Shown: positions 39,695 to 63,259 of the stretch, piece by piece
How positions within the stretch are numbered: the first letter of the stretch is position 1
Layout: each line of letters starts with the position of its first letter
From: Candidatus Iainarchaeum sp.
Lineage (GTDB): Archaea > Iainarchaeota > Iainarchaeia > Iainarchaeales > JAZDDZ01
Length of the DNA stretch: 64,000 bases
Direction of reading: 5' to 3'
Assembly: GCA_043809245.1 (NCBI GenBank)
Contig: JAZDDZ010000054.1
Span: 51,988 to 115,987 of the forward strand
Program-made: the position numbers and the translations under genes
Notes under the pieces: model-generated
Database searches by the model: none
Seen by the model: only the letters and a program-made list of their open reading frames with translations
Told to the model about the DNA's origin: nothing

Positions 39695-39800
39695 AGAGAT
39701 TTACGCGAGCAGGGTTAAAAAAGAAAAGGGATAGTGGGTTTCCGGTGCGGAAAACAAAAAAGAACACACATATATACAAGAAAGCACTAAATTATTGGCA

Positions 39801-42800
39801 ATGAAAAAAGCAATTTTGCTCGGGGTTCTGCTGTTATCGCTGTTTTCCCTTAGCGTTCATGCAAGCGAATGCGATAGCCCTAAACCAAACTGGTTTTTCT
39901 GCCACGATTTTGAAGCTTCTGATTCAGGGAATTTCGCAAAGTACTGGGATGATTTCGGGGACTTGGTTACAGCAAACAGGGAGATAGCCCTTAGAAACGA
40001 GAACGTACCCAGCCTTGAAGGCACAAAGAGCGTAAGGTTTCTGATAAAGAACGAAACAGGAAGCGCAATTTCCGCTGTCGGAGCAGGGTTCAAAAAATTC
40101 TTTGGCACGGCATACAGCCAAGTGGGCTATGACACTGTTTACTACCGCTTCTACTTCCGCCTCAACGAGCAATGGAGCCATGGCTGGGGCATGCACTGGC
40201 TGAGCTTAAGCGGCTGCAACGTAAACAGCAATGTATGGGGCTGCATGGGAACAGCAGGCCTTAAGCCTGATGGAACCAACTGGTTTTCAGTTGGCACAGA
40301 CCTTTGGACAAACTGGGAAAGCATTCCCGCACCAGGCGAAATTGTTACATATTCTTATCACATGGACCTAACCCCTGATGGCCATGGCGATTACTTTGGG
40401 GAGAACATGACCCCGCACCCGGGAATTTCACCTGAAAGGGGAAAATGGCATGTCATCGAGATGATGGGAAAATCAAACACCCCGGGATTGTATGATGGCG
40501 AACAAAAAATCTGGTTTGACGGCAAGCTAGTCGGAAATTATTCAGGCATTAGATGGCGCTCAACAAACGACGTTAAAATTACATACGCGGGCTTCTACAT
40601 CTACATCCACAACCCCCCCGCAAATTCACTGAACTACATTGACAACGACAACGTGGTTTTCAGCACCTCCTATATAGGCCCCGCAAAATGCGTTGACAGT
40701 GTTTCAATTGAAGCCCCGTGCTATTGTGGTGGAACGCCTTCTCCAACCAATTCATCCAATATTTATGCAAGCGGAGTCTGCCTTGGCAATGTTTGGTATG
40801 AATCCAATGCACAATGCACTGTAAACGGCCAGACAAGAAGCTGCTCAACAGGGAAGAACGGAATCTGTGCAACAGGAACACAAACATGCTCAGGGGGAAA
40901 CTGGGGCACGTGCATTCAAAACCTGCAGGCAGGAAACGAAGTGTGCGATGATGCAGGCAATTTGGACGAGGACTGCGATGGCCTGAGTAACTGTGATGAC
41001 ACAGGCTGTTCCACTAATCCAGCCTGCCAGTCTGCGGAGGAGACTTATTACATTTTCGGTGGCGCAACCGATAATTACTGGCCTGGCGCCTATCCTGATT
41101 CAAGCGACAGCATCACAAGAACCACTAACAACCCTGCCGCTGGAACCCATAACCTGCAGTTCCCTTCAACTGGCGCGTGGATGAATGTAAATATTTATGG
41201 AGTTTCAATTCCGACAGCTGACTTGGACTGGGCAAATTCTTATCTGGAATTCAAAATTTCCACCTCCGCGCCTGTTGGCTATATGGAAGCGCATTTGGGT
41301 TCCAGCAGCGGCGCCTATCCCTACAAAACTTTCACAACAACAGGAACTGGTTATGACACAATACGGATTAACCTAACTGATTTTGCCGCGACAAAAGCCG
41401 CATTTGGCAGTTCAATCGCGGGCTTCTTCATCGGCGGAGGCTGGCCAGCTTCAACTGTTTACATTGACGAAATCAAAATCGTTTCACCCGGAACAAGCCC
41501 ACAGCCGTGCACGGAAAACTGGAGCTGCACTACATGGAGCAGCTGTGTGAACAACCAACAGACACGCACCTGCACGGATTTGGCCGGATGCGGCACCACG
41601 GCAAACAAGCCGATTGAAACGCAAACATGCACAACCTGCACGGAGCAATGGAGCTGCACGCAATGGAGCGCATGCAGCAACGGTTCACAATCACGCACTT
41701 GCTCTGATCCAAACCCTTCAACAACAAATTGCCCCGCGCTTCCAAAACCAATGGAAACTCAGAGTTGCACTGTCGGGCAGGTTTGTGAAACAACGGCCGA
41801 ACACTGCAAATACGCGAGCAACCGCACGGATTCAGGAACCGGCAGCTTCAGCGACCCCTGGAACATTTCCCAGGCGTTCACAAATGCTTCTGCGGGAGAC
41901 CTTGTTTATTTCAGGGGCGGGGAATATGATGTAAGCGCCGGCACACCACAGATAACCACCTCCGGTACTTCGGATGCCTGGATAACCTTCAAGGCATATC
42001 CTGAGGAAAATCCACACCTCGACGCAAAATATATGGGGAAATGCCCGATTGAATTATATCAGGTCAGAAATATCATTATTGATGGCTTCGAGATTTCAGG
42101 GATAGGTGAAGGTCCCTCAGGCGAAACCTGTGGCGGAGGCATCTATCTAAAAGGTTCTGCAGATTTGAAGGGGGAAAATATTACTATAAGGAACAACGAT
42201 TTGCACGGGCTGGAACTATGCACCATAGGGACAATATGCACCAACAGGGGGCTGATAAAAACCTATGAATACAATAACGTGATTATTGAGAACAACACCA
42301 TTCATGACATAACTTCCGGAACTTATGGCGGGAACAATACTGCAGGAATTTACATCATGTCAGGGGGATTATTTGGCCGGCCATATGACGGGATAAATAT
42401 GATAATCAGGAATAACCACATATACAACATGTTCGGCCAGGTGCTTTGCATAAAGCACAAGTACCCAAACCACGGCCCCTACTTAATTGAAGGCAATACA
42501 CTTCATGACTGTGCCACAGCTTTTTATACAAGCGGTCTGGATGAGGCGATATTCCGGAATAATTTGATTTATAATGTTACTCTTGGAATAGATGACGCTG
42601 GTTACCAAGTCGGTTCCTGGAACTACACTGCTGAGCCTTTTGAAATTACAAATAATACTTTCTACAGCATATATGTTGCGGCATTGATATTCAGGGACAA
42701 CGATATCACTCCGAGAATAATTGAAAAAAATATTTTTGTTGACTCAAGCGGCAGCGGTGGAGCAGACAATTCGGCGGATATTTCCATAAGGGAGCCAGTA

Positions 42801-43304
42801 TCCTATGTTGGAATTGAAAGTAATGCCAATTGTGTCTGGTATCCTGGCTCGCAATATCATGTGAGATACCATAACCCCTATAGCTGTTCAGGAGGATGCC
42901 TTAGTTTTGAAGGGGCGCAACTGAGCCCTTATTTTTATGATTTGGATTCAGTCAAGCTCAGTGATTCCCAGGCCGCGGGCCTTTTCGTGAACCCCCCCGC
43001 AGGCGATTTCCATCTCAACAACCCTTCGCTGTGCCCTGGAATAGGCGCATATGCAAATGCACTGCAGTGCACGGTAAATGTTGCGACGCCCTGCACGATT
43101 TTCCTCGCTGGCGGGACAATAAGCGCCTGCTCACAGCAGAGCCTGATTTACCAGTATGATGCAACAGCAACAGTAAACAACACTGTAAACGGCCTGCAGG
43201 CGAATAAATCGCATGACATAAAAATTGAGAACATCACGCAGGGAACGGAGCAGAACATTTCAGCAACCACCAACTCAAACGGAGTGCTGCAATTCAATTC
43301 ATGA
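39801..43304 (+). CDS. Modular secreted protein A: jelly-roll (polysaccharide-lyase/ConA-like) + Cys modules + CBM-like + right-handed beta-helix + conserved CTD
   Basis: Signal peptide; W..IE..NTPG..DG..W.DG; WSC..WS.C repeats; IRNN/IENN beta-helix repeats. Confidence 0.85.
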   Translation: MKKAILLGVLLLSLFSLSVHASECDSPKPNWFFCHDFEASDSGNFAKYWDDFGDLVTANREIALRNENVPSLEGTKSVRFLIKNETGSAISAVGAGFKKFFGTAYSQVGYDTVYYRFYFRLNEQWSHGWGMHWLSLSGCNVNSNVWGCMGTAGLKPDGTNWFSVGTDLWTNWESIPAPGEIVTYSYHMDLTPDGHGDYFGENMTPHPGISPERGKWHVIEMMGKSNTPGLYDGEQKIWFDGKLVGNYSGIRWRSTNDVKITYAGFYIYIHNPPANSLNYIDNDNVVFSTSYIGPAKCVDSVSIEAPCYCGGTPSPTNSSNIYASGVCLGNVWYESNAQCTVNGQTRSCSTGKNGICATGTQTCSGGNWGTCIQNLQAGNEVCDDAGNLDEDCDGLSNCDDTGCSTNPACQSAEETYYIFGGATDNYWPGAYPDSSDSITRTTNNPAAGTHNLQFPSTGAWMNVNIYGVSIPTADLDWANSYLEFKISTSAPVGYMEAHLGSSSGAYPYKTFTTTGTGYDTIRINLTDFAATKAAFGSSIAGFFIGGGWPASTVYIDEIKIVSPGTSPQPCTENWSCTTWSSCVNNQQTRTCTDLAGCGTTANKPIETQTCTTCTEQWSCTQWSACSNGSQSRTCSDPNPSTTNCPALPKPMETQSCTVGQVCETTAEHCKYASNRTDSGTGSFSDPWNISQAFTNASAGDLVYFRGGEYDVSAGTPQITTSGTSDAWITFKAYPEENPHLDAKYMGKCPIELYQVRNIIIDGFEISGIGEGPSGETCGGGIYLKGSADLKGENITIRNNDLHGLELCTIGTICTNRGLIKTYEYNNVIIENNTIHDITSGTYGGNNTAGIYIMSGGLFGRPYDGINMIIRNNHIYNMFGQVLCIKHKYPNHGPYLIEGNTLHDCATAFYTSGLDEAIFRNNLIYNVTLGIDDAGYQVGSWNYTAEPFEITNNTFYSIYVAALIFRDNDITPRIIEKNIFVDSSGSGGADNSADISIREPVSYVGIESNANCVWYPGSQYHVRYHNPYSCSGGCLSFEGAQLSPYFYDLDSVKLSDSQAAGLFVNPPAGDFHLNNPSLCPGIGAYANALQCTVNVATPCTIFLAGGTISACSQQSLIYQYDATATVNNTVNGLQANKSHDIKIENITQGTEQNISATTNSNGVLQFNS

Positions 43305-43311
43305 AGAAAGG

Positions 43312-43740
43312 CTATTTTTTCTTCCTGATTCTTTTCTCCAGTTTTTTTATGACTGGCTCTGACTGTATTTTTGAGCGGAATTCCTGCGTGAAGCGCATCA
43401 CGTAAAAAATCGCGGCAACCCATACAGCGAAAATAATGTAGCTCCATGGCGCTTCGGGAATGCTCTGGAGGAATGCCTGCGGCGCAATTGAAGGGTCAAC
43501 AAGGCCGTGCTGCTGTAAAGCCACAACTATTTTGATTAAAGTGTCTGTGTCGCGAAGTAGATACACAGCGAAAGCGAACATGAATGTGAGAATCAAAAGC
43601 AGCTGTATCACTTCAATGGCAATGAAACGCGGGTCGCTTTTTGCCTTAAGCCATTTCTCGCGCGCCTTGTCCTCTATTGCTTTGCCCGCAAGCTTGCCTA
43701 CTTCCTTTGCGCGGCGAAGCCTTTCCCTAACCTTTGGCAT
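43312..43740 (-). CDS. Hypothetical 2-TM membrane protein
   Basis: Two hydrophobic segments; TATA-like box ~25 nt before ATG 43740. Confidence 0.65.
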   Translation of the reverse strand: MPKVRERLRRAKEVGKLAGKAIEDKAREKWLKAKSDPRFIAIEVIQLLLILTFMFAFAVYLLRDTDTLIKIVVALQQHGLVDPSIAPQAFLQSIPEAPWSYIIFAVWVAAIFYVMRFTQEFRSKIQSEPVIKKLEKRIRKKK

Positions 43741-43780
43741 AACAGTAAAAGAAGAGACAAAGTGGTATAAAAAGCTTCTT

Positions 43781-44506
43781 TCAGCGCCCCGTGGTTTTGC
43801 CCAGATATGCTTTCCTTTTCTTTTCAGGAAACTTTTCAATCGCATAACGGAGCATTGTTCGCGGCATTTTCACAGCGTGCTTTTTCAGGAATCGTTCTTC
43901 CGCAGCCAAAGCCCTTTTGCCTATTTCGCGAAGCATCCAGCCAACTGCCTTGTGGATTAAGTCATGCTTGTCTTCAAGCAGCAGCTCTGCGATTGAAAGC
44001 GATTCATCAAAGCGCTTTTCCCTTATGAACGAAAAAGTTGAAAGCACTGCAATGCGTTTCTCCCACAAATTTTTTGACTTTGCCAAGCGGAAAAGAACTG
44101 CTTTTTCTTTTTTGCTTTTTTCCAGCAAAAAATTCCCAGGAATGTTAGGCGCGGAAAGGTCAACCAAATCCCAGTTGTTCACGCGCTTTGCATTTTCAAG
44201 GTAAAAGTTAAAGATTTCTTTTTTTTCGTTTTCATCAGCTTTTTTGAATTTGCTTACAAGGATGAAGAGCGCGGTGAGCCTGTGCTCGTGCACTTTGCTT
44301 GAAAGCAGCGACTGAATTTCTTCAAGAGAAAGGTTCGGGTATTTTTTCGCAAACTTTCTCTGCTCCGGCACCATCACGCCAAGAAAGACATCGCCTTCGC
44401 CGTACTCTCCTTTTCCGGTTTTAAAGAAACGGGAAAGGAGTTTTGCCTTTCCAGGCACTGCGGCTGACTGCAAATCGGATTTTAACTGGATTAATTTGCT
44501 TGGCAT
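43781..44506 (-). CDS. DNA alkylation repair protein (AlkD-like)
   Basis: FFKTGKGEYGEGD; VNNWDLVD; HKAVGWMLRE; MPRTMLRYAIE. Confidence 0.92.
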   Translation of the reverse strand: MPSKLIQLKSDLQSAAVPGKAKLLSRFFKTGKGEYGEGDVFLGVMVPEQRKFAKKYPNLSLEEIQSLLSSKVHEHRLTALFILVSKFKKADENEKKEIFNFYLENAKRVNNWDLVDLSAPNIPGNFLLEKSKKEKAVLFRLAKSKNLWEKRIAVLSTFSFIREKRFDESLSIAELLLEDKHDLIHKAVGWMLREIGKRALAAEERFLKKHAVKMPRTMLRYAIEKFPEKKRKAYLGKTTGR

Positions 44507-44527
44507 AACTATCTTCGCTTAAAAAAT

Positions 44528-44782
44528 TCAGATTTTTCGGTAAACCTTTTTTCTATGTGCGACGGTAATGGCAGTTATCTTCTTTTGAATGAAATTAATC
44601 TGGCAAATGATCCGATATTTGCCAACACGCAACTTGAATAAATCGTGGCCAGTGAGCCTTTCAAAAAAAAGTTGCGGCTGTTCTGCAGCCAATATTAATT
44701 TTTTCTTTATCCGTTCAACATCAATGTTTTCAAATTTTTTTAGCTCGGAAGAAAAGCCTTTGGTGACAAGAAGCTCGAACAA
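44528..44782 (-). CDS. RelE family toxin
   Basis: KLRVGKYRII; VAHRKKVY. Confidence 0.9.
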   Translation of the reverse strand: MFELLVTKGFSSELKKFENIDVERIKKKLILAAEQPQLFFERLTGHDLFKLRVGKYRIICQINFIQKKITAITVAHRKKVYRKI

Positions 44783-45025
44783 TCAGATTCCCCATTTCTT
44801 CTCTGCTTCTTTCAATGGAAGGACCCTCCCCGCCTTGATGTCTTCAAGGGATCTTTCTATCTGCCTTATTTCATCATCGCTTAAGGGCTCATCGTCTTCA
44901 GCCATATTCACAAGCCTTTCAATTACCTCTGAATAGCTCTCCCTTTCAAAAGTCTTAATTTTGTCAAGCTTGTTTTTAAGGGAAGAATCAATTCTAACAG
45001 TTGTCGCAACAGCCAATTCAATCAC
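44783..45025 (-). CDS. Antitoxin partner of RelE
   Basis: TTVRI..RESYSEVIERL; EDIKAGRV. Confidence 0.82.
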   Translation of the reverse strand: MIELAVATTVRIDSSLKNKLDKIKTFERESYSEVIERLVNMAEDDEPLSDDEIRQIERSLEDIKAGRVLPLKEAEKKWGI

Positions 45026-45029
45026 TAAA

Positions 45030-45043
45030 TATACTTAAGTATA
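45030..45043. promoter_or_regulatory. Palindromic TA operator
   Basis: Perfect palindrome TATACTTAAGTATA immediately upstream of the antitoxin. Confidence 0.55.
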
Positions 45044-45072
45044 CAGAAGTATATAAATATATGCTGAGGAGC

Positions 45073-45552
45073 TCACTCTTCGGTTTTTATCCCGAACTCT
45101 TCGTCAATGTCTTTCGCGGCTTTTTTCATTTTCTGGAATATGCGTTCAATGTCTTCCTCTATTTCTGAAACTGTCCGGAAAATGCTCCTGCTTCGGCTTT
45201 CATAAACGCGCCCGTGCCTTACGATTAAACCTGAGCGCATTAAGTTGTTCAAGTGGTTGATTATTGAGCCGCGGCTCATGCCGACTCTCTGCGACAAAGC
45301 GGTTGAAGTTGGGGGCTTTCCTTTTTCTGTTCCGTCAACGATTACCCTGAAAACAGCTGCAGCGGTTTTGCCGCGAACCTTGCCGCCTGAATCGACAGGC
45401 TTATGCTCTTCAATACCCTGCAGTCTTGGCTCGAAAAAGCCGAAAGTCTGGCAAATCCAGTTCAATTCGTCATCACGGCTGGAAGAAAAAGGCCTTTCAA
45501 CCTGCCGGATGACTATTTTAAAGGCACCTCTGCGCTGAATTTGTCCAGCCAT
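45073..45552 (-). CDS. Winged-HTH (ArsR/TrmB-like) regulator divergent from grpE-dnaK
   Basis: TSTALSQRVGMSRGSIINHLNNL HTH; coiled C-terminus. Confidence 0.8.
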   Translation of the reverse strand: MAGQIQRRGAFKIVIRQVERPFSSSRDDELNWICQTFGFFEPRLQGIEEHKPVDSGGKVRGKTAAAVFRVIVDGTEKGKPPTSTALSQRVGMSRGSIINHLNNLMRSGLIVRHGRVYESRSRSIFRTVSEIEEDIERIFQKMKKAAKDIDEEFGIKTEE

Positions 45553-45639
45553 AAGAGAAAAGGGCACGGAAAGCTTTAAATACATTTTGATTAAAAAGTT
45601 GTTTAATTGATTAAAAAAATTAGTCAAAAACGTGGTTTT

Positions 45640-46182
45640 GTGGATAAAACGCCTAAAAATGATGAAAAGAAAGGGGAACCCCCAGGCAAGGGGCTTGAGG
45701 CAAGGCTTGAGGCTGCATTAAAAGAAAAAGAGGAATTAAAGGATTTGGCGCAAAGAATTCAGGCAAACTTTGAGAACTACTGCAAGCGCGTTGAAAAAGA
45801 AAACATTGAGTTCAAAAAGTTTTCCGCTGCAGGGGTTGTGAAGGATTTGCTTCCATTCATTGACTCGGTTGACAGCGCAATTGAGGCAATGAAAAAAGCG
45901 CAGGAAAAAGAAATTGAAACAGGGAAGGTTGTTGCCGGAATTGAACTGCTCAAAAAGCAGCTGATTGAGATTTTGAAAAAAGAGGGCTTGGAGGAAATCA
46001 AAGCGAAAGGCACAAAGTTTGACCCTCACTTGATGGAAGCGCTGATGCACGAAAGCATTGAAGGAAAAAAAGACGAGGAAGTTTTGGAGGAAATGCAGAA
46101 AGGCTATCTTTTCCATGGAAAGGTTTTAAGGCCCGTGAAAGTTAAGGTTAATTTAATTAAAAAAAACGGAGAAAAAAATTAA
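45640..46182 (+). CDS. grpE: Nucleotide exchange factor GrpE
   Basis: ANFENY.KR; FDPHLMEA; KGY..VLRP. Confidence 0.95.
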   Translation: MDKTPKNDEKKGEPPGKGLEARLEAALKEKEELKDLAQRIQANFENYCKRVEKENIEFKKFSAAGVVKDLLPFIDSVDSAIEAMKKAQEKEIETGKVVAGIELLKKQLIEILKKEGLEEIKAKGTKFDPHLMEALMHESIEGKKDEEVLEEMQKGYLFHGKVLRPVKVKVNLIKKNGEKN

Positions 46183-46207
46183 TTTTAAAAACGGAGTGTG
46201 GTATTGA

Positions 46208-48091
46208 ATGGCAAAGACAATAGGCGTGGATCTCGGCACATCTAATAGCGCTGCCGCAATTTTAGAGGGCGGAAAGCCCAAAATAATTCCAAGCGCGGAA
46301 GGCGCTTCACTTTACGGAAAGGCATTTCCAAGCGTGGTTGCTTTCACGAAAGACGGGCAGTTATTGGTTGGGGAGCCCGCGAAAAGGCAGGCAGTTACAA
46401 ACCCTGAGGGGACAATCACTGCAGCGAAAAGAAAAATGGGAACAAATTTCAAGTACGCGATTGGCGGAAAAGAGTACACGCCACAGCAAATCAGCGCGTT
46501 TATTTTGCAGAAAATAAAAAGGGACGCGGAAGAATTTTTAGGGGAAAAAGTGGAGAAAGCGGTTATCACTGTTCCCGCTTATTTTGATGACAACCAAAGG
46601 CAGGCAACAAAAGACGCTGGGCAGATTGCGGGCCTTGAAGTCATAAGGCTTGTCAACGAGCCGACAGCCGCATCGCTTGCATACGGCTTGGACAAGAAAG
46701 GAAAAGACCACAAAATCTTGGTTTTTGACTTCGGCGGCGGAACATTGGATGTAACCATAATGGAGTTCGGCGGAGGGGTCTTTGAGGTTAAAAGCACGAG
46801 TGGAGACACGCAGTTGGGCGGAACAGACATGGACAAATTGCTTTCCGATTACATTGTTGCGGAATTCAAAAAAGAACAGTCAGTTGATTTAACCAAGGAC
46901 AGGATGGCAATGCAGAGGCTTGCGGAGGCAGCGGAGAAGGCAAAAATAGAGTTAAGCACTGTGATGGAGACAGACATCAATCTGCCTTATGTTACCGCGG
47001 ATTCAAACGGCCCAAAGCACCTTGCAATGAAAATAACGCGCTCAAAACTGGAGCAGCTGGTTGAGCCAATCATTAAAAAATGCGAGAAGCCGATAGCGCA
47101 GTCGCTTGCAGACGCAAAGCTCACCGCCGGAGAGATTGACAAAATCATTTTAGTCGGAGGCCCAACTAGAATGCCTGTCGTGCAAAAATTTGTGGAAAAA
47201 GTCGTTGGAACAAAAGTTGAGAGAGGCGTTGACCCAATGGAGTGCGTTGCAGTGGGCGCGGCAATACAGGCAGGCGTGCTTAGCGGCGAGGTAAAGGATG
47301 TTTTGCTGCTTGATGTTACGCCGCTCAGCCTTGGAATTGAAACCCTTGGCGGAGTGCTGACAAAACTGATTGAAAGGAACACGACTATTCCCACAAAAAA
47401 ATCGCAGATTTTTACAACCGCGGCTGACAGCCAGACAGCTGTTGACATTCACATTCTGCAGGGAGAAAGGCCAATGGCAAACGACAACAGGGAACTGGGA
47501 AGGTTTCAGTTGGTTGGAATTCCTCCCGCGCCGCGCGGTGTTCCGCAGGTTGAGGTTTCGTTTGACATTGACGCGAACGGAATAGTGAATGTGACAGCGC
47601 TTGACAAGGCAACGAATAAAAGCCAGAGCATCAAAATAGTTGCCTCACAGAAATTAAGCGACACGGAAATAGAGAGCATGAGAAAGGCAGCGGAAGCGCA
47701 CGCGGAAGAGGACAAGAAGAAAAAAGACGAAATTGAGGCAATCAACCAGGCTGATGCGGTTACTTACAGCACTGATAAAATGCTCGAGGAATTCAAGGGA
47801 AAAGTTGAACAGGGAAAACTTGACAGCGTGAAAAAAGCCAACGATGAATTGAAGGAATTGCTTGGAAAAGAGCCAAAGGACGCGGGCAGCATAAAGGCAA
47901 AAATGGATGAACTGAACAAGTTGCTGCAGGCAATCGGCTCGGAAATGTATGGAAAAGCACAGCAAGGGCAACAGCAGCAAGGCGAAAGCAACAGCGGCGC
48001 AGGCAGTGGCAGCGAAGAGCACAAGGGAAAGCACGGGAAAGGAAAAGTCGTTGACGCTGACTTCAAAGTGGAAGACGAGGGCAAGAAATAA
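46208..48091 (+). CDS. dnaK: Chaperone DnaK
   Basis: GVDLGTSNS; TVPAYF; DFGGGTLD; LVGGPTR. Confidence 0.98.
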
Positions 48092-48127
48092 AAGCAAAAA
48101 CCAAGCATTTAAATACATTTTCGTATC

Positions 48128-48153
48128 AAATAGTTATTAGTTGATAACTATTT
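48128..48153. promoter_or_regulatory. Inverted-repeat operator of module inserted between dnaK and dnaJ
   Basis: AAATAGTTAT-N6-ATAACTATTT just downstream of TTTAAATA. Confidence 0.6.
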
Positions 48154-48163
48154 TAGTGGTTTT

Positions 48164-53132: not shown

Positions 53133-53152
53133 ATTGCGGGAAAGGCGTTTTC

Positions 53153-54388: not shown

Positions 54389-54404
54389 TGAAAGGTGAAT
54401 CGTT

Positions 54405-54518
54405 TTGAAAGTTGAATGGAGAATGAACTTGGATGGAAAGGGGTATTCGGGTAAAACCGATGGGGAGTTAAAGGAGTTTTTGGGAGAACTTAACGCAATC
54501 ATTGACGGAAAGAAGTGA
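54405..54518 (+). CDS. Unannotated 37-aa ORF between rps15 and rps3ae
   Basis: GGTGA SD + TTG; fills the intergenic gap; MKVEWRMNLDGKGYSGKTDGELKEFLGELNAIIDGKK. Confidence 0.45.
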   Translation: MKVEWRMNLDGKGYSGKTDGELKEFLGELNAIIDGKK

Positions 54519-54523
54519 AGATT

Positions 54524-55147: not shown

Positions 55148-55827
55148 CAATGGCATATGCATTGGAAATAGCAGTACTGGTTTTAACGCTTGCATTTTTT
55201 TCAATCGCAGCATACAAAAAAAAAGCCCTTGACTTCAAAGGAGTCATAGCAGGCAATGTTGTTGGCATAATTGTTTTCTTCCAGGGCGGCATAGCGGATT
55301 TCCTTGTCCTGGTGGCGTTATTTTCAATGGCGGTTATTGCAACCGAGTTCTCAAGAAGAAAAGTAAGCGTAAAGCACGAGAAAAGGACAACAAGCAATAT
55401 TTTGGGGAATTCCGGCGCGGCGCTGATAGCTGTTTTCTTCCTGAACCCGATTGCCTTTTTTGGCGCGGCTTCAACAGCTTTGGCTGACACGCTTTCATCG
55501 GAAATAGGCCTGCTTTCAAAAACAAAGCCAAAGCTAATTACCTCTTTCAGGGAAGTCGAGCACGGCACAAACGGGGGAGTAACAGTTTTGGGAACCCAGG
55601 CCTCGCTGGTTGGCGCAGCAGTAATTGCAGTGCTTTTCCTTTTTTTCCAGGGCAGCGCAACAGGCGCACTAATTGTTTTCGCTGCGGGAATGATCGGCTC
55701 CTTTGCAGACAGTGTTCTGGGGGCGACAATCGAGGAAAAAGGCATTCTATCCAATGCAGGAGTGAATTTTTTTGCCTGCCTTTTAGGCGCGCTTATTGCC
55801 TTCTCGCTTAACTCAGTTTTACTCTAG
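55144..55827 (+). CDS. DUF92 / TMEM19 membrane protein
   Basis: ADTLSSEIG; P.LIT..GTNGGVT; DSVLGA..E; N..VN. Confidence 0.9.
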   Translation: MTMAYALEIAVLVLTLAFFSIAAYKKKALDFKGVIAGNVVGIIVFFQGGIADFLVLVALFSMAVIATEFSRRKVSVKHEKRTTSNILGNSGAALIAVFFLNPIAFFGAASTALADTLSSEIGLLSKTKPKLITSFREVEHGTNGGVTVLGTQASLVGAAVIAVLFLFFQGSATGALIVFAAGMIGSFADSVLGATIEEKGILSNAGVNFFACLLGALIAFSLNSVLL

Positions 55828-55891
55828 GCGCATATAATAAATCTTTTTCTCCAAAGAATTAGAAAGAGCGCTATATTTTGGGGAATTGGAA

Positions 55892-56407
55892 ATGGCTTTG
55901 GAGTTCTGGGCTGGAATCGCATTATACATTGCGCCAATGTACATTGCTAATTCAAGCGCAATGATTTTTGGCGGCAGGACACCACTTGACTTGAACAGGA
56001 AATGGGTTGACGGAAAGCCCATTTTTGGCTCGGGAAAAACATTCAAGGGAACAGCAATCGGAGTGATAAGCGGGACAATAGTCGCATTCCTCATTAACGC
56101 GGCAATTCCCGAAATAACCTCACTCTTAACGCCAGAATATGTTGTACTTGGATTCCTTTTGTCTTTTGGCGCGGTTGCAGGGGACATAGTTGCAAGCTTT
56201 TTCAAGCGCAGAAACAACATCAAACAGGGAACACCAGTGCTTTTTTTGGACCAACTGGACTTTGTTTTCGGCGCCGCGGTTTTTGCCGGAGTGATTTACC
56301 TTCCCTCGCTTTACGAGTTTCTAATAATAGGCATTGCGACAATGGTCGTGCACAGGGTTAGCAATTTCGTCGCGTTCAAGCTTAGGATAAAAAAAGTGCC
56401 CTGGTGA
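55892..56407 (+). CDS. carS: CDP-archaeol synthase
   Basis: P.YIAN; PLD; GKTFKG; GD..SFFKRR; LDQLDF. Confidence 0.9.
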   Translation: MALEFWAGIALYIAPMYIANSSAMIFGGRTPLDLNRKWVDGKPIFGSGKTFKGTAIGVISGTIVAFLINAAIPEITSLLTPEYVVLGFLLSFGAVAGDIVASFFKRRNNIKQGTPVLFLDQLDFVFGAAVFAGVIYLPSLYEFLIIGIATMVVHRVSNFVAFKLRIKKVPW

Positions 56408-56475
56408 CAAGGTTTGGCGAATGAAAAATGGCGTATTATTGGTTTGCCTAACCTTGGCAGGGGATAGGTGAATAA

Positions 56476-56964
56476 ATGGATTCTGAAAAAAAAGCAATGC
56501 TTTCATTCCTCGCAAAGTTCTTCATAATCTACGGCGTTCTCCAGGGGTTAATTCTTTTCCTTGACCTTTCATTCATCCAAACGGCTTTGGCTGGGTTAAG
56601 CGCGGCAATGGTTTCCGCGCAAGCCAACGGCGTTTTCGTGAGGATAAACAGCGGCGCGTTTGAGGTAACGGCTTCCTGCACTGGCTTGGTTTCCGCATCC
56701 ATTCTTGCAGCAATAATTTTTTCACTGAAAAAGCCTGAAATGAAAAAAAAGTTTTTGTTTTTCATTGCCGGCGCGGTTGCATTGTTTTTGGTTAACATTG
56801 CAAGGCTTTACCTAGTGCTTTCAATCGGCAAAGCATTTGGGATTAACGCAGCTGAAACCGCGCACGTGCTCAGCTGGTTTGCAATGAGCGCGGCAATAAT
56901 CGCGCTATGGTATTACGGAACAAAAAAATTAATCGGAATAAAAGAATTCGGGGAATTGATTTGA
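56476..56964 (+). CDS. Archaeosortase/exosortase family protein
   Basis: CTG, NxxR and downstream His (Cys-Arg-His triad pattern) in TM protein. Confidence 0.78.
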   Translation: MDSEKKAMLSFLAKFFIIYGVLQGLILFLDLSFIQTALAGLSAAMVSAQANGVFVRINSGAFEVTASCTGLVSASILAAIIFSLKKPEMKKKFLFFIAGAVALFLVNIARLYLVLSIGKAFGINAAETAHVLSWFAMSAAIIALWYYGTKKLIGIKEFGELI

Positions 56965-56993
56965 AATGATTGGCAGAAAAAGAAAAAGTGAGG

Positions 56994-58658
56994 TCATTTA
57001 ACTTCTTTTTTTGCTAATTGTTCTTTTTGCTTTTGCTGCCCGATTAAGTAGCGCAGGACTTCCGCGAAGCCCGGCCTTGTGATGAACACTCCAACCAATA
57101 CCCCAAGGATTGTTGTGAAAGCAAAGCCAACCAGTTTGGTTAAGCCAAAGGATTGGCCGAACAAAAGAATTGGAAGAGTGGCTGCGATTGCGGTTGAAGC
57201 CGAGGCAAAGACAATGAAGAACGCGCGTTTCACGCGGTTAACCAGGGAGCCTGATTCATACTCTTCGCCTTTGATTAGCTCGTCCGTTACAACGATTTGG
57301 TCGTCAACACCTGTTCCAACGGCTGCAAGGATTCCGGCAATGGATGCGAGGTCAAGCTGCCATTTGACAAGCGCGGCAATCGCAATTACTATTACAATTT
57401 CGCTTATGTCAGTTGCAAGGATTGGAATTGTAATCCTTAGGTTTCGGTAGCGGATGAAAAGCACTAAAGCCACTATGAGCAGTGCCGCCAGGCCCATAAA
57501 CAATGTGTTCTGCAGGAACTCTGCTCCAAGCAAGGGGGAAATGCTTTCCTTTGAAATTGACTCAACTGGAATCGGCAAATAACCGGATTCAAGCAAAATA
57601 GTCAAAGAGCTGAGCCTGTCAAGCGCTTCCTGCTGGCTTGAAGCGCTTCCCGTGATTGCAAGGTCTGAGAAGACTTTTGCATTAGATATGTCCGCAACAT
57701 AGGGCTCCATGTTTGTGACGTCCTCGCGCAAAGAAATTATTTGCCTTGCACCCGAAGCAGTCCAGATCCAGGGAATTCCCGCGGAAGGCTCAACTTCCTT
57801 TAGCCTGAAGCCCAAAACGTTAAGGTCGCTTTTAACTGAATCCGCGAAACCCGGGGAAATTATTGCAGTGTGGTTTGATGAGACAAGCTCTTTGAGCTCT
57901 TCGCTTTGCTCTTCCGAGATTCCGTTTGAGGAAATTATAAAGTAAGGCTGGTTTATGTTCAAAAGCAGCTCGTTTATTTCCGTGCCGGATGAAATGTCTT
58001 CGGTGAGGTTTCCATTCAATAAAAGCTGTTCGTCGGCGCTGAACTGTTCTTCGGAGAAAAGGAAGACTGATTGTTCGGGCCTGTCAATGAAGAAGTAAGT
58101 TTTGTCGCAGTCGTAAACATTGCCTTGCTGGGGGTCATAGGAAACAATTGTGCATTTGTGGAAAATCATGCGGCTGAATCGCTGCGCCGCATCTGATTTG
58201 AGAATGAAAGGCAAATCCCACCTGAACAAGGTGTCGCTTTCCTTTCTTAAGCCGTAGCCGCGCGCAGGGTCCTTTAGTATTGCCGCAATTTCGTCGCCGT
58301 TGAATAAAACGTTTCCATCAATGGTTGCCTCGAATTTTCCCTGTTTTTTGATTATTGTTTCAATGCGCTCCACTTCTTTTGGGTCGGTTTCAGCGACTTG
58401 CGCCAGGATAATGTCCTCTCCTGCGCTAGTGACCTTTGTGTCCTTCAAGCCGAATGAGTTGATTCTCTGCTCCAGGATTGTGCTGAAAGTCATTAATTGC
58501 GCTGCATCAGCTGGCTTTTCCGCAAGGTGAATCTGGAAAAGCGTTCCACCCTGAAAGTCAATGCCCAACTGGACTCCGTAAGCAGCGATGATTATCGCTG
58601 CCGCGATGACAGCGCAAACCCAGAGCACGACACGCCAGTTGCGCAAAAGCTCCCTCAT
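56994..58658 (-). CDS. secD: Protein translocase subunit SecD
   Basis: LGIDFQGG; L.SG.LP; GTGVDDQIV; GFA.TT. Confidence 0.93.
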   Translation of the reverse strand: MRELLRNWRVVLWVCAVIAAAIIIAAYGVQLGIDFQGGTLFQIHLAEKPADAAQLMTFSTILEQRINSFGLKDTKVTSAGEDIILAQVAETDPKEVERIETIIKKQGKFEATIDGNVLFNGDEIAAILKDPARGYGLRKESDTLFRWDLPFILKSDAAQRFSRMIFHKCTIVSYDPQQGNVYDCDKTYFFIDRPEQSVFLFSEEQFSADEQLLLNGNLTEDISSGTEINELLLNINQPYFIISSNGISEEQSEELKELVSSNHTAIISPGFADSVKSDLNVLGFRLKEVEPSAGIPWIWTASGARQIISLREDVTNMEPYVADISNAKVFSDLAITGSASSQQEALDRLSSLTILLESGYLPIPVESISKESISPLLGAEFLQNTLFMGLAALLIVALVLFIRYRNLRITIPILATDISEIVIVIAIAALVKWQLDLASIAGILAAVGTGVDDQIVVTDELIKGEEYESGSLVNRVKRAFFIVFASASTAIAATLPILLFGQSFGLTKLVGFAFTTILGVLVGVFITRPGFAEVLRYLIGQQKQKEQLAKKEVK

Positions 58659-59731
58659 TTTTTCACCTTTTTCTGCTTTGAATCAGCATACCATAAAAGC
58701 ATTGGCGCGTTCAGGAACCAGGTGGAAATGACGTCGCCGAACAAGCCGAACAAAATCACTGCGGCTATTTCAAAAACAACCATCATTTGCGCGAAATATG
58801 AAAGCACAAGCATTACTGATATCGCGGCAATCGTTGTTCCGGTCATGGTCAGGCCGGTTGCCATTGAATTGTAGGCGCGGTCAGCCGCGGTTGCCTCCTT
58901 TCTCTTTAGGACACGCGTTGTGAGAAGAATGTCAGTGTCAATGCTGTAACCGACAAGCATTAAGAGCGCAGGAATAGTTACGAGTGAAATGTTTATGCCA
59001 AACAAAGCCATTCCGCCTAAGCCCATTAAAACATCAAAAACAGCTGCGGCAATTATTGCAAGCGAGGGAATGAATTCGCGGAAGTAAATGAATATTACTA
59101 TTACGAGCAGCACAACTGAAATGAGCGCGAGCTTCAAGCCGTTGCCCACAAAGCTTTCGCTTAATGCAGGGCCGACTTCCCTTTGCTGGAAGCGCGTGTT
59201 GGCGCCCAGGCCAAGGCCATTGGTTATTGCATCCTCAAGGGAATTCTTGAATGCCTCCCTTGCCTTGTCAATTGAAGAATCAGCCAATTCAAGGAGGTCT
59301 GGAAGGCTTAAGCCTTCGCCTGAAGGAACCTGTGTGAACACAGACATTGCCTGCAGGGATTGCATTGCAAGCGATTGCGCCTGCTCAGGGTTTGAGTCTT
59401 CAAGAGAGTGCGCCTGGCTTAAAAGGCCCTCGGCTTTTTTGAAGTCCTCGTCATAAGCGAACTGGATTGTGGCGCCAAAGCCCCCTGTTGGAGAGGAAAT
59501 AGTTGAAATCTGCAGGTCCTTTAGCTTGAATTTCTGGGTTAAAACCCCCTGAAGCTGGGGGGCAGTAATTGGCGTGTCAGCGCGGACAATTATCTGGTTG
59601 CCGCCCTTCAAGTCAATTCCCTGGGGAATTCCAGGATAAACGAATGCCAGAAAAGCCAAAACAAGGTATAAAACCAGGGGAATGACCATCATTTTCCTGT
59701 AATCGCCCTTGTATAAATTGGAGAAATTCAT
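58655..59731 (-). CDS. secF: Protein translocase subunit SecF
   Basis: GIDLKGG; VGP; GYSIDTDILL; TW..NA. Confidence 0.93.
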   Translation of the reverse strand: MNFSNLYKGDYRKMMVIPLVLYLVLAFLAFVYPGIPQGIDLKGGNQIIVRADTPITAPQLQGVLTQKFKLKDLQISTISSPTGGFGATIQFAYDEDFKKAEGLLSQAHSLEDSNPEQAQSLAMQSLQAMSVFTQVPSGEGLSLPDLLELADSSIDKAREAFKNSLEDAITNGLGLGANTRFQQREVGPALSESFVGNGLKLALISVVLLVIVIFIYFREFIPSLAIIAAAVFDVLMGLGGMALFGINISLVTIPALLMLVGYSIDTDILLTTRVLKRKEATAADRAYNSMATGLTMTGTTIAAISVMLVLSYFAQMMVVFEIAAVILFGLFGDVISTWFLNAPMLLWYADSKQKKVKK

Positions 59732-59912
59732 TTTTCTTACACCAGCTTAAGACAAAGTTAGCACATAAAGAATAATAGTCTATAGTAGTTATTTTTCTTG
59801 GCTAAAATTTAAAAAACAGCGCATTTGCGCATAAAGCCGAACTTTCTTATTTTCTTATTTTCAGAAAAGCTTATTAATGCAAAGGAAGCCAATTGTTATG
59901 GGGGTGCTTTAA

Positions 59913-60188
59913 GTGGATAGCGTTGAATTAACCAAAATGAGTTCAAGGGGGCAGGTCGTGATACCCCAAAATATAAGGGAAAAAATGGGCCTTAAGGAAG
60001 GCGAGGCATTCGCGGCTGTTGCAAGCGGCAACACATTAATGCTGAGGAGGATAAAGACTCCTTCAAAAGAGGACATTTTGAAAGAACTCGAAAGGCTTGC
60101 AGTGAAAGGCGAGGCAAGGGCAAAAAAACTCGGATTAAAGGAAAAGGACGTTGACAGGATTATCCATGAGGCAAGGGGAACCAAGTAA
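59913..60188 (+). CDS. AbrB/MazE antitoxin
   Basis: MSSRGQVVIP..IRE.MGLKEG. Confidence 0.9.
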   Translation: MDSVELTKMSSRGQVVIPQNIREKMGLKEGEAFAAVASGNTLMLRRIKTPSKEDILKELERLAVKGEARAKKLGLKEKDVDRIIHEARGTK

Positions 60189-60276
60189 TGATTAGGGCCT
60201 TGCTTGACACAAACATCCTTGTTTCAGCGGGATAAAAATAGTAAACGCAAGGCAGTTTTTGGATTTGTTTAAATGA
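60188..60276 (+). pseudogene. Internally deleted PIN/VapC toxin
   Basis: MIRALLDTNILVSA joined out of frame to GIKIVNARQFLDLFK*; TAATG-coupled to AbrB. Confidence 0.8.
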
Positions 60277-60283
60277 AGGGGAA

Positions 60284-61276
60284 ATGAAAATGCGGCTATC
60301 CTATGTTCCAAGGGCAGATGACATAATAGGCGTTGCCTTCCGAAAGGCAAACAAGGAAGGCGGGCAGGTAAAAAAAATAAAGGACCGCGATAAGAGAAAA
60401 AAAACCATTGAGGCAAACAAGATAAAGATTGCGGAGAAATACCTTGGCGCGGAACTGAAAAAAATAGTGAAGGAAACGCCAAGCATTGAAGAACTTCATC
60501 CTTTTTACCGCGAACTGATGGCTTCGGCTGTAAGCCTGGATGAATACAAAAAATCACTGGGGCAATTGCAGAAAATCCCGAAGCTATTGTCAAGGGTGCG
60601 CTCGGAGTCAATGAGGCAGATTTTTTCCTCAAGGGATTCGGAAAAAGCCTTTGCCGCGAGAAAAAAGTTTTTTGCGCGCGCTGCATCGCTGGTTGAAAGC
60701 GCGGATAAAAGCCTCTCGCTACTTAGAAGGGTTTCAATTGAATCAAAAAAGTTTCCCAAAATAAATTTCGCTTTGCCGACAATTGCATTGGCCGGGTTTC
60801 CAAATGCAGGAAAAACCACTATTCTGAAACGCCTGACTGGCTCTGAGCCGGAAATAGCGCCTTACCCTTTCACCACAAAAGAAGTTAAGTTAGGGCACTT
60901 TGAGTTCCGTTATCAAAAAATTCAGGTGATTGACACGCCTGGGTTGCTTGACAGGCCGCAGAAAAACTTAGTTGAAAAAAAAGCCTTGAGCGCGTTAAAG
61001 CATTTGGCACAACTCGTTGTGTTTATTTTTGACCCGACAAAAAGCTGCGGTTTCACGGTTGAAGAGCAATTCAAGCTATTGGAAGAGCTCAAAGGGGAAC
61101 TGGGCGGGATTCCGTTCATCACGGTTGTGAACAAGGCAGACATGGCTAACGAGGGGGAAATAGGGGAAGTCAGCGCAAAAATAAGCGAATTCATTTTAAG
61201 CGGCGAAGGAACCAGCGAAAAAGAATTAAAGGAAAAAATCTGCGAAAACCTCAAGGAAAGGAAGCTGATTGAATAG
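60284..61276 (+). CDS. NOG1-family GTPase
   Basis: LHPFY; GFPNAGKT; YPFTTK; DTPGLLDR; NKAD. Confidence 0.93.
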   Translation: MKMRLSYVPRADDIIGVAFRKANKEGGQVKKIKDRDKRKKTIEANKIKIAEKYLGAELKKIVKETPSIEELHPFYRELMASAVSLDEYKKSLGQLQKIPKLLSRVRSESMRQIFSSRDSEKAFAARKKFFARAASLVESADKSLSLLRRVSIESKKFPKINFALPTIALAGFPNAGKTTILKRLTGSEPEIAPYPFTTKEVKLGHFEFRYQKIQVIDTPGLLDRPQKNLVEKKALSALKHLAQLVVFIFDPTKSCGFTVEEQFKLLEELKGELGGIPFITVVNKADMANEGEIGEVSAKISEFILSGEGTSEKELKEKICENLKERKLIE

Positions 61277-61322
61277 GTTGAAGAAGGTTAATTTAAATAG
61301 TGGAAAGCGCTAATTATTAGCG

Positions 61323-63173
61323 ATGAAAAAAGCAATTCTGTTTGTGTTCCTTTTCCTCCTTGCAGGGCTGGTTTGTGCATCCGCGCCGCTTCCCCTAAAA
61401 CTGGATTTCGGTTCAGCTTCCTCGCCCGTAATGGCTGGTTACACTCGCTTCACTGCAACGGCTTACAGTGCTGCAACCGGCTATGGCTGGGAGAACACTT
61501 CAGGCGTGTACGCTGACACAAGGTCTTCTGGGAATGAATTGGAAATCGACATGCACCAGATAGATGCTGAAAAAAGGTTTTTTGTGGATGTTCCCAACGG
61601 AACATACGCGGTTACTTTTCATTTCTATGACGCGGTTTTCGGGCAGAACGGAATCAACCTTGATGTTGAAGGAACAAGCGCGATAAGCAATTTAAGCGTT
61701 CCAAGCGCAACACACATAACAAGAACAAGCCAAACAAATGTAACGGACGGACAGTTAACGATAAGAATTTACAGCAGCACAGGAGGGGGAATGATATTAA
61801 ACGGATTGGAGGTTACAAGCACAGGAAGCACTTGCATTGAAAACTGGAACTGCACGACATGGAGCAGCTGCGTTGACGGAACGCAGACAAGAACCTGCAC
61901 TGATTCAGCTGGATGCGGAACAACCGTTTACAAGCCCGCCGAAATACAAAGCTGTTCCACGCCAGGGCAAGGCGTTATTTTTGAGGACGATTTCGAGGGA
62001 TGGCATGACCAGACAGGTTCAGGAGACAATGTAATCTGCAATCCAAGCAACAGCATAACTGCATGCAGGCCTGGTGGAAGCGAGTGGTGTGGTTTGTCTA
62101 ATTGGAGCGGTTATGGGTTGCCGGATAGCCAGGTCATTAATAATGGAGGAAGATTAAACAGCAATTCTTTCGTGGGCAATTATGAGTCAAGGGCTGAACC
62201 TTCAGCCCAGCTTACTGGATTTCTGCCAGACACGAATAAGGATGAGTTGTACTTTAGATGGTACACAAAGTATGACCCAACATGGGAATGGTGGCCTAAT
62301 CAAATTGAGCAGAAGCTGGCCCGAATAAGATGGACGCCTGCAGGATCAGCATGCCATATATGTGACCCATATGATATCATTCCTAAATGGAAATGGGGAA
62401 GAATGGTTTATGCAATATTTCCCGTTCAAGGAGTTACGCCAAGCATATATTCTGATCCTGAGGTTACCTGGCATGATTATGGCCCAGGGAATTGGATTTT
62501 GATTGAAAATTACATTAAACTTAACACAGTGGGACAAAATGATGGCATACTAACCTCGTGGATTAACGGAAAAAAAGTCCTTCACAGCGAAACAGTTTTC
62601 CTCAGGTCATCCGATACGCATATCAACAGCATCAACATTGGAGATAATATAGTTTACACAAAAAACCAAGGCGACCCAAGTGTTCCCTGGTATCCCCTGG
62701 AAGAAAAACAAATATGGTGGGACGATTTCGCCATAAGCACAAACTACCTCGGCCCAGAACCCTGCCCGAATGCAACAGAAATCACGCCAGAAAACGTTGG
62801 AACATGCTACTGCGGAAGCGCTTCAGCTTCACCAGAATGCTCTGCACCAAATCCATCAGCTTGCACTGGTATAGTTGACTCGGGTTACTGCTGCAACAAT
62901 TCATGGCAAACAACAAGCTGCACACCCGCAATACAATGCACAGTCAACATTGCAAACCCATGCACAATCTCTTTGGCAGGCGGAACAATCAATTCGTGCT
63001 CACAACAAAACCTCATCTACCAATACAATGCAACAACAACAGTGAACAACACAGTCAATGGGCTGCAGGCAAGCAAGGCATACGACATCAAAATAGAGAA
63101 CACGACAACAGGCATAACACAGAACAAAACCGCGAACACAAATTCCTCAGGCGTGCTGCAATTCAATTCATGA
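61323..63173 (+). CDS. Modular secreted protein B: malectin/CBM-like + Cys module + jelly-roll lyase-like + conserved CTD
   Basis: Signal peptide; DFG..Y..GYGW..VPNG.Y..NGLE; same jelly-roll and CTD as 39801-43304. Confidence 0.85.
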   Translation: MKKAILFVFLFLLAGLVCASAPLPLKLDFGSASSPVMAGYTRFTATAYSAATGYGWENTSGVYADTRSSGNELEIDMHQIDAEKRFFVDVPNGTYAVTFHFYDAVFGQNGINLDVEGTSAISNLSVPSATHITRTSQTNVTDGQLTIRIYSSTGGGMILNGLEVTSTGSTCIENWNCTTWSSCVDGTQTRTCTDSAGCGTTVYKPAEIQSCSTPGQGVIFEDDFEGWHDQTGSGDNVICNPSNSITACRPGGSEWCGLSNWSGYGLPDSQVINNGGRLNSNSFVGNYESRAEPSAQLTGFLPDTNKDELYFRWYTKYDPTWEWWPNQIEQKLARIRWTPAGSACHICDPYDIIPKWKWGRMVYAIFPVQGVTPSIYSDPEVTWHDYGPGNWILIENYIKLNTVGQNDGILTSWINGKKVLHSETVFLRSSDTHINSINIGDNIVYTKNQGDPSVPWYPLEEKQIWWDDFAISTNYLGPEPCPNATEITPENVGTCYCGSASASPECSAPNPSACTGIVDSGYCCNNSWQTTSCTPAIQCTVNIANPCTISLAGGTINSCSQQNLIYQYNATTTVNNTVNGLQASKAYDIKIENTTTGITQNKTANTNSSGVLQFNS

Positions 63174-63259
63174 AGCAAAATAACCGCTTTTTCGTGTTAC
63201 AAATATGGTTTTCTAACAACCCATACTATTTAAAAATATGACCGTTGTAATAACCATAT

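Follow-up and report, generated by a model that had tools for sequence, protein, structure and literature searches.

A shared C-terminal beta-sandwich in a recombining family of exported modular proteins from an Iainarchaeales archaeon

Introduction

How do small-genome archaea of the DPANN type hold exported proteins on their surface, and how do they engage partners and substrates? Both questions are largely unanswered, and a 64,000-nucleotide (nt) stretch of Candidatus Iainarchaeum sp. poses them in a concrete form. The stretch, here called the window (G000:C54:51988-115987, G000 being the label of this genome), carries two genes, A and B, whose products are assembled from different modules but end in the same 79-residue C-terminal domain (CTD). 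The genes belong to a recombining family to which 2.3% of the genome is given (13 genes, together 34.3 kb), and the sole invariant part of this family is a terminal domain that has no name in any library. Our tentative reading is that the CTD serves as a common binding handle, a non-covalent docking module that holds interchangeable cargo on a common partner in the cell envelope, and give this reading a probability of roughly 40%. If it is correct, the family would represent a new mode of protein display on the archaeal surface, and the CTD would be a sequence marker by which the proteins on display and their receptor could be found. Should the CTD be a structural cap only, the family still offers a clean archaeal case of module shuffling combined with the concerted evolution of one module.

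Results and discussion

Thirteen genes ending in one domain

A sequence-only reading of the window had pointed to the common ends of genes A and B, and these were found as described. Both genes carry GAAAGC(A/G)CTAA(A)TTATT(G/A)GC(A/G) immediately 5' of the ATG, and both proteins begin with MKKAIL. The last 79 residues are identical at 60 of 79 amino acid (aa) positions and 166 of 237 nt, a similarity far beyond chance (BLASTP E = 7e-33), with different codons in 34 of the 60 residues in common. The longest exact string shared by the two CTD regions is the 23-mer GTGCTGCAATTCAATTCATGAAG around the stop codon, which starts at 43284 in A and at 63153 in B. The signal peptide is the sole hydrophobic segment of either protein, which bears out the claim that neither has a transmembrane anchor. 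The description of the interiors stands in part: the jelly roll is indeed first in A and last in B (29% local identity by BLASTP, a weak similarity), and B has a malectin-like domain, but a Cys-rich module of ~45 aa is also common to both proteins (44% identity, E = 2e-17), and the beta-helix ascribed to A has no library match. The region in question gives no Pfam match at E <= 1 and no PDB match, and a phmmer search of PDB sequences with the whole A protein returns nothing at E <= 0.01. A putative beta-helix is suggested by [IV][RE][NG]N.[ILF][HY] repeats at aa 796, 829, 869 and 896, and by the NCBI name of P0016, a relative with the same module ('right-handed parallel beta-helix repeat-containing protein').

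What had been described as a two-gene family has 13 members in G000, a genome of 1.48 Mb in 55 contigs with 44% G+C and an estimated completeness of 91.8%. Searched in six frames, the genome yields 13 copies of the CTD at 65-100% identity, together with one 19-aa fragment, and more copies occur in relatives; the domain is thus not limited to two paralogues. All 13 copies reach up to the stop codon or fall one residue short of it. Twelve members are intact; apart from an N-terminal signal peptide of the Sec type they contain no hydrophobic segment, in agreement with the expectation that the CTD closes signal-peptide proteins without an anchor. The thirteenth, F06 (G000:C54:33224-33688, locus L018, 154 aa), is a 3' remnant with the GYCC linker and the CTD intact, and with neither signal peptide nor cargo. 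The 19-aa fragment (L014, C54:31405-31461) lies 1.8 kb from this remnant, and both adjoin a gene for an AAA_14 ATPase; the two could have decayed from full copies, or could serve as silent donors in gene conversion.

The modules that Pfam recognizes across the members include PL14-like jelly rolls, galactose-binding-like or malectin-like domains, fn3, Big_7, PKD and MopE-like Cys motifs. The PL14 profile PF21294 reaches its 27-bit cut-off in 10 of the 13 members (27.2-63.8 bits), with 18.2 bits in A, 24.4 in F03 and no match in the remnant, and most of these matches span only profile positions ~128-215. In B, where the Pfam stretch covers aa 385-433, a structure search of the ESM Atlas matches the module to a PL14 cluster with a TM-score of 0.75 over 228 residues, which is name-worthy by the tool's bar; the module is a putative lyase or lectin. 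Eleven members share a larger 3' cassette of Cys module, PL14-like module, GYCC linker and CTD, the exceptions being the remnant and gene A, where the CTD follows the beta-helix-like region. As had been proposed, the CTD is attached to different kinds of preceding module: at least six are found, namely PL14-like, beta-helix-like, YYIFGG, Laminin_G_3, galactose-binding-like and another jelly roll, and in P0017 only a signal peptide precedes it. A further relative, P0011 (257 aa), fuses an N-terminal part of ~170 residues resembling a cytoplasmic enzyme to the CTD, an architecture that is probably not real but due to a chimeric gene call or an assembly join. The family encodes modular proteins that are exported by the Sec pathway and rich in cysteines and sequons.

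Secreted or surface proteins with lectin-type domains (ConA-like/LamG, PKD), strain-specific and present in multiple copies, have been described in DPANN archaea, where they take up a few percent of a small genome and are proposed to act in carbohydrate or host recognition (consulted sections of PMC10266531). Such repertoires are already known, and what appears to be new here is the common terminal module: the same sections describe none, whereas the present family has PL14-like cargo and is united by recombination and a common CTD. The limited literature collection searched, which included parts of PMC10936187 and PMC10266531, holds no description of the domain.

Distribution, selection and conversion

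A profile built from 21 CTDs matches 3 of the 196 genomes of the order, with 13 matches in G000, 16 in G027 and 20 in G172, the latter two being the two species of genus g28. The same three genomes are the only ones matched phylum-wide (3 of 215). Among 1.84 billion representative proteins there are 72 matches at E <= 0.001, of which ~25 are full-length and single-domain, mostly proteins of these three genomes; each relative cluster looked up has 1-3 members, each on one contig. A pattern search of genome contigs with CTD alignment A2 gave 27 pattern matches, none of which was upheld by tblastn. Within the order the PL14-like module, too, occurs in these three genomes only, and the toolbox as a whole is therefore restricted to the lineage. 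One relative from this order is named 'hypothetical protein [Candidatus Diapherotrites archaeon]' by NCBI, which fits the assignment of the window to DPANN, and the window itself has archaeal markers (ribosomal proteins S3Ae and S15, CDP-archaeol synthase, aIF2-gamma, aIF5B-like and NOG1).

Over 78 pairs of CTDs the median proportion of synonymous differences (pS) is 0.56 and that of non-synonymous differences (pN) 0.10, which corresponds to a dN/dS of ~0.10. Regional comparison of the last 400 residues in 11 members, with A and the remnant left out, identifies the CTD as the most conserved stretch: amino acid identity is 0.82-0.87 in the CTD and 0.33-0.74 in the upstream jelly roll, and pS is 0.44-0.58 in the CTD versus 0.73-0.83 upstream. 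The paralogues are mosaics of high-identity tracts, which indicates that modules are exchanged by recombination. F09 and F11 share 95-100% nt identity over the CTD only, F07 and B 92-100% over the first ~700 nt only, F04 and F12 80-97% over the 5' 1.7 kb, and B and F03 95-98% from the 3' end on into the ATPase gene that follows. In the CTD tree the 11 G000 copies included (of 13) form one clade (support 96/83, 97% of bootstrap trees), while the copies of G027 and G172 intermix as common subtypes. The jelly rolls adjoining the G000 CTDs are not grouped by genome and interleave with those of G172; G172_C72b and F09n of G000, for instance, are joined at 99/97. The low dN/dS of the CTD, and its single G000 clade next to jelly rolls that form none, show purifying selection acting together with gene conversion within G000.

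A possible docking module without an anchor

Two routes of anchoring are visible in G000, and the family appears to use neither, since its members have no membrane anchor and no transmembrane tail. The maximal 17-aa hydropathy in the last 40 residues ranges from -0.04 to -0.49 in all 13 members, and we infer that the proteins are devoid of membrane anchor, lipobox and archaeosortase-type tail. Archaeosortase and exosortase signals (PGF-CTERM and kin) consist of a short motif, a C-terminal transmembrane helix and a basic tail, and the helix is required. About 80 predicted exported or membrane proteins of G000 have terminal hydrophobic segments. In at least four other large exported proteins the C-terminus is made up of a [SV][IV]PE[LM]P motif, a transmembrane helix and a basic tail; judged by these tails, they look like substrates of the archaeosortase/exosortase-family protein encoded in the window, which is nearest to ArtD, ArtE and paceosortase, yet falls under the cut-offs of all of them. 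An open reading frame (ORF) adjoining F08 was considered as a second archaeosortase and rejected.

The absence of an anchor, and the uniformity of the CTD alone across paralogues with different cargo, point to a shared binding handle. Under this reading, the terminal sandwich of these Sec-exported, anchorless modular proteins with interchangeable glycan-related cargo would dock non-covalently to one common envelope partner. An arrangement that is comparable by analogy only is found in bacteria, where the ESM Atlas holds PL14 clusters fused to SLH anchors.

Several observations weigh against the docking reading. The exported proteins may not be retained at all but end up in the medium. Gene conversion alone accounts for part of the uniformity of the CTD within the genome, and the CTDs of the two g28 genomes are diverse (~30-60% identity, several subtypes), so that a single uniform receptor does not hold as a rule across the family. 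A Cys-less subtype of the CTD is internal in at least seven proteins and one Cys-bearing copy is N-terminal; a binding module, however, can sit anywhere in a protein, and the internal copies therefore do not weaken the binding reading as such. The structural matches of the domain are generic (best Z 5.3). The family genes are dispersed, with housekeeping genes around them and no envelope-related gene as a conserved neighbour, and no binding partner was found.

A partner was sought by co-distribution among seven large surface proteins of G000: P0074 and L037 were compared with the whole order, and L038, L037, L077, L078, L079 and L080 with G027, G172 and three genomes devoid of the CTD. The sequence-only reading had offered the repeats at 19230-24284 for pairing with the CTD; they belong to an exported protein that is possibly an S-layer or other envelope protein. 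Its homologues, matched most widely over the C-terminal ~300-500 aa, occur in 27 of the 196 genomes, 25 of them without the CTD, and are absent from the CTD-holding G172. This protein is not co-distributed with the domain, and the search for a co-occurring receptor or sorting machinery has identified none. L037 is the only one of the seven with a full-length homologue confined to CTD-holding genomes: among the 196 genomes such a homologue is present in G172 alone (41% identity), and in G027 just the PKD part is matched. L037 is a candidate partner, a lead and not evidence, as the specificity of the pattern is calibrated on seven proteins alone. The membrane-anchored L077 was also examined as a protein sharing the cargo toolbox of the family and was rejected, having only PKD and Cys-rich linker modules in common with it. 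A complex prediction for two copies of the CTD scored 0.00 against a mark of 0.42 without folded controls, and is evidence neither way on binding.

A more specific form of the docking reading, and a rather doubtful one, makes the CTD an archaeal counterpart of dockerins or of the tags of the type IX secretion system (T9SS), as the sequence-only reading had supposed. The CTD would then be a genome-specific handle co-evolving with an envelope receptor, gene conversion would keep the handles compatible, and L037 would be one candidate for the partner. Like dockerins, the CTD is a terminal module common to many glycan-active enzymes with varied cargo and conserved within a species. Dockerins are duplicated Ca-binding helical segments, whereas the CTD models are all-beta, and no cohesin-like partner was found among the surface proteins tested. 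The T9SS CTD (Por_Secre_tail, CHU_C) is likewise a beta-sandwich of ~80 aa that closes numerous signal-peptide proteins of a single genome whose cargo is unrelated. It differs in having no sequence match to the present domain, which also occurs in N-terminal and internal positions and belongs to an archaeal host with no known T9SS, although T9SS genes were not searched for.

Sequence and fold of the domain

The CTD is modelled as a beta-sandwich of 6-7 strands with an FN3-like E-F strand motif and a Cys10/Cys22 pair. AlphaFold models from 21 and 38 sequences (predicted local distance difference test scores 74.9 and 80.1) both have six main strands and no helix, and in both the first 7-14 residues are ill-defined. 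The domain starts with a conserved boundary motif, TPAxQCTVN, and its last strand finishes 1-2 residues short of the stop codon. Y29, G73 and F77 are invariant across the three genomes, L44, Y50, I54, N56 and L75 are kept in at least 90% of the copies, and the Cys-bearing type additionally has C10, C22 and an I-E-N-x-T sequon. The conserved polar loops comprise GTIN, IENxT and SNSxG. An N-x-T sequon is invariant in the terminal sandwich of the family. The CTD carries 3-6 N-x-S/T sequons in 79 aa (3.8-7.6 per 100 aa), compared with 0-2.3 per 100 aa elsewhere in the same proteins and a crude proteome value of 0.58, that is 7-13 times the proteome mean; a gene for an STT3/AglB homologue is present in G000. 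Together with the conserved cysteines, these features fit an extracellular setting.

The view of the CTD as an autonomous domain without a name in Pfam or NCBIfam is supported by an hmmscan of all 13 copies at E <= 10, which returned only chance-level rows and no T9SS CTD, dockerin (PF00404) or carbohydrate-binding module (CBM) family. These rows include fn3 (E = 0.032, one of 13 copies) and FN3_Tor_3rd (E = 0.023, six of 13), none at the Pfam threshold. Foldseek found no PDB match for the first model at E <= 0.001. In VIA-align, where Z values below 8 are beneath the tool's meaningful level and all CTD scores are below 6, the best neighbours in the PDB are the N-domain of an M14 carboxypeptidase (4a37_A, Z 5.3, root mean square deviation 2.8 over 69 residues) and the C-domain of heparinase II (3e7j_A, Z 5.0, 2.8 over 68 residues), followed at lower Z by amylase domain C (Z 4.0-4.8), adhesin repeats and macroglobulin domains. 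Atlas model neighbours (HepII_C, Pepdidase_M14_N and MG2) have TM-scores of 0.5-0.64, none of them enough for a name, and a feature search of the ESM Atlas gave no usable match. The best fold-level neighbours, HepII_C (PF18675), Pepdidase_M14_N (PF18027) and amylase domain C, with Atlas structure rows at TM-scores of 0.59-0.63, differ from the CTD in having sub-meaningful scores and no sequence relation to it, and are themselves domains without a defined independent function.

This neighbourhood would also suit a CBM-like module that steers its cargo, enzyme or lectin, towards a glycan substrate or a host surface and not to the cell's own envelope, a reading that we consider rather unlikely. 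The cargo is glycan-related, with PL14-like and galactose-binding or malectin-like modules, the closest folds are accessory sandwiches of carbohydrate-active enzymes, and CBMs are found at either end of proteins or internally, as the CTD is in relatives. The lack of any CBM match in Pfam and of any structural Z of 6 or more speaks against it, as do the conserved aromatics Y29, Y31, Y50 and F77, which alternate with conserved aliphatics in a core-like manner; no conserved, exposed platform of aromatics is evident from the alignments, which were judged without coordinates.

At the sequence level the domain leans weakly towards fibronectin type III (FN3) repeats. Its sub-threshold sequence matches in the PDB are almost all FN3 domains that align to CTD positions ~28-66 (best E 0.058), and the non-family matches in the library of 1.84 billion proteins are multi-FN3 proteins, matched repeatedly through positions 31-64. 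One of these, P0009, with 17 fn3 stretches, attains E = 5e-28 to the CTD profile, summed over 15 short stretches. Like fn3 (PF00041), the CTD is a small all-beta sandwich, and its N.V..L....Y.I.I.N motif fits the E-F region of FN3; the difference is that only ~30 residues align and that the Cys10/Cys22 pair and the N-terminal segment have no FN3 counterpart. An hhalign comparison with the fn3 domains of G000 itself speaks against the relation, with a probability of 0.4%. A relation to a characterised immunoglobulin (Ig), FlgD or CBM family had been named as an argument against a novel tag, and the FN3 repeats picked out by the profile carry that argument part of the way: the CTD is probably a divergent Ig/FN3-type sandwich, and we read it as a new sequence family and not a new fold.

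Such a sandwich might be a passive end-cap or spacer without a specific ligand, its uniformity being a by-product of frequent gene conversion at the 3' end. This explanation, which we hold to be unlikely, draws on the FN3 likeness, on the clear conversion tracts and mosaicism, on the synonymous divergence of the CTD below that of upstream regions, and on the monophyly of the G000 copies. Between genomes, moreover, the CTD does not exceed the jelly roll in conservation (25-64% identity to B, compared with 32-64% for the jelly roll in 5 of 6 matches). Homogenisation alone, however, would not produce a dN/dS of ~0.1 at the observed median pS, which indicates long-term purifying selection, and a spacer is not expected always at the extreme end (13 of 13 in G000), nor would it be expected to outrank every other segment in conservation, the putative catalytic or lectin modules included.

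Position in relatives

The extreme C-terminal position seen in G000 (13 C-terminal loci of 13 examined, none N-terminal or internal) is not general. Ten loci were examined in G027, six weaker matches being left out: eight copies are C-terminal, one is N-terminal directly after the signal peptide (L034 = P0024) and one is internal (L035). In G172 14 of 20 copies are C-terminal (one weak, one a fragment and one with a 2-aa tail), none is N-terminal and six are internal. A profile count had been proposed to ask whether the CTD is always C-terminal, which holds for G000 and fails for G027 and G172. The internal copies form a separate Cys-less clade with support 100/98, and among the examined loci of the three genomes 34 of the 35 Cys-bearing copies are C-terminal. 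The internal and N-terminal occurrences weaken the sorting-signal reading, and as the same fold is also N-terminal and internal in relatives, the CTD is probably not a translocation signal. A true sorting signal of the T9SS-CTD type, recognized by dedicated machinery and then cleaved or covalently processed, is highly improbable: the strict terminal placement in G000 with the last strand at the stop, the near-complete C-terminal bias of the Cys-bearing copies and the conserved boundary motif would suit it, but one Cys-bearing copy directly follows a signal peptide, the Cys-less subtype is internal, no known sorting-domain model in Pfam or NCBIfam is matched, no conserved neighbouring machinery was seen, and the only sortase-like gene of the window is of a family that needs transmembrane-helix signals, which the CTD proteins do not have.

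Module architecture and genomic context

The features of the two genes and of their surroundings are collected in Table 1. The weak polysaccharide-lyase match of the A jelly roll spans aa 63-257. In paralogues the GICxxGxxTC...WGxC...DEDCDG motif gives weak Cu-binding_MopE matches, and in the relatives P0015 and P0016 the YYIFGG module stands immediately 5' of the CTD.

Table 1. Features of genes A and B, their surroundings and other loci discussed in the text. Positions are those of the window unless a contig is given.
Feature	Position	Strand	Extent and evidence
Gene A (F01)	39801..43304	+	1167 aa; stop codon 43302-43304; signal peptide ~aa 1-21; hydrophobic 19-aa windows only N-terminal
A promoter region	39770..39800	+	TATA-like ATATATAC 39770-39777; degenerate family leader palindrome 39784-39800 abutting ATG; putative function
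A N-terminal ConA-type / polysaccharide-lyase-like jelly roll	39867..40685	+	~aa 23-295; Pfam PF14099 E = 0.0016, PF21294 E = 0.0022, both under curated cut-offs
A Cys-rich module GICxxGxxTC...WGxC...DEDCDG	40818..41030	+	~aa 340-410; motif scan
A 'YYIFGG...IKIVSPG' module, family unassigned	41040..41489	+	~aa 414-563; motif scan
A tandem pair of ~45-aa Cys-rich modules (CxExWxCxxWSxC)	41505..41771	+	BLASTP to B aa 170-213; motif scan
A putative right-handed parallel beta-helix	41778..43025	+	~aa 660-1075
A CTD	43065..43301	+	79 aa
Gene B (F02)	61323..63173	+	616 aa; signal peptide ~aa 1-20
B promoter region	61292..61322	+	TATA-like TTTAAATA 61292-61299; perfect palindrome GCGCTAATTATTAGCG 61307-61322 abutting ATG
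B galactose-binding-like / malectin-like domain	61398..61778	+	aa 26-152; Pfam PF21254 E = 2e-7, 31.4 bits vs cut-off 27; Malectin E = 0.049
B Cys-rich module	61830..61961	+	aa 170-213
B PL14-like jelly roll	61962..62837	+	aa 214-505; Pfam PF21294 27.2 bits vs cut-off 27
B 'SGYCCNxSWQTTSCTPA' linker	62874..62933	+	directly before CTD; kept in 12/13 members
B CTD	62934..63170	+	79 aa
AAA_14-type ATPase gene	63260..64000	+	87 nt 3' of B; Pfam PF13173 E = 4.4e-34; runs off window and contig end
OmpL47-type repeat protein	19230-24284		1684 aa, exported; NF047446 E = 1.7e-28; no Pfam match
Archaeosortase/exosortase-family gene	56476-56964		162 aa; TIGR04178 45.7 bits vs cut-off 23
PD-(D/E)XK / Cas4-like nuclease ORF	39044-39694	-	PF12705 E = 9.8e-12
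L037	G000:C54:25053-29519 (outside window)		1488 aa; signal peptide, PKD domain, C-terminal transmembrane tail
Other family-adjoining AAA_14 ATPases in G000	C20:7327-8619, C24:8371-9114, C44:10753-11964, C49:77856-78392, C54:33769-35085		

The palindrome in front of B recurs genome-wide, with no more than one mismatch, only before the family genes F02, F07, F11 and F13, and that of gene A is a variant with one base inserted. It may be an operator, or merely part of a shared, duplicated promoter.

The ATPase gene downstream of B is one of 12 AAA_14-type ATPase genes in G000, of which six are no more than 200 bp away from a family gene (~0.2 expected by chance, by arithmetic). Seven of the 13 family genes are touched in this way, five with the ATPase just downstream and two with it just upstream. 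The pairing also occurs at the G172 loci L050 and L053; no AAA_14 ATPase was seen in the 1.5-kb flanks of 10 G027 loci. Several family and ATPase genes are found at contig ends; for 7 of the 13 family genes the distance to such an end is no more than ~2 kb. Directly upstream of A, in divergent orientation, is the nuclease ORF listed in Table 1.

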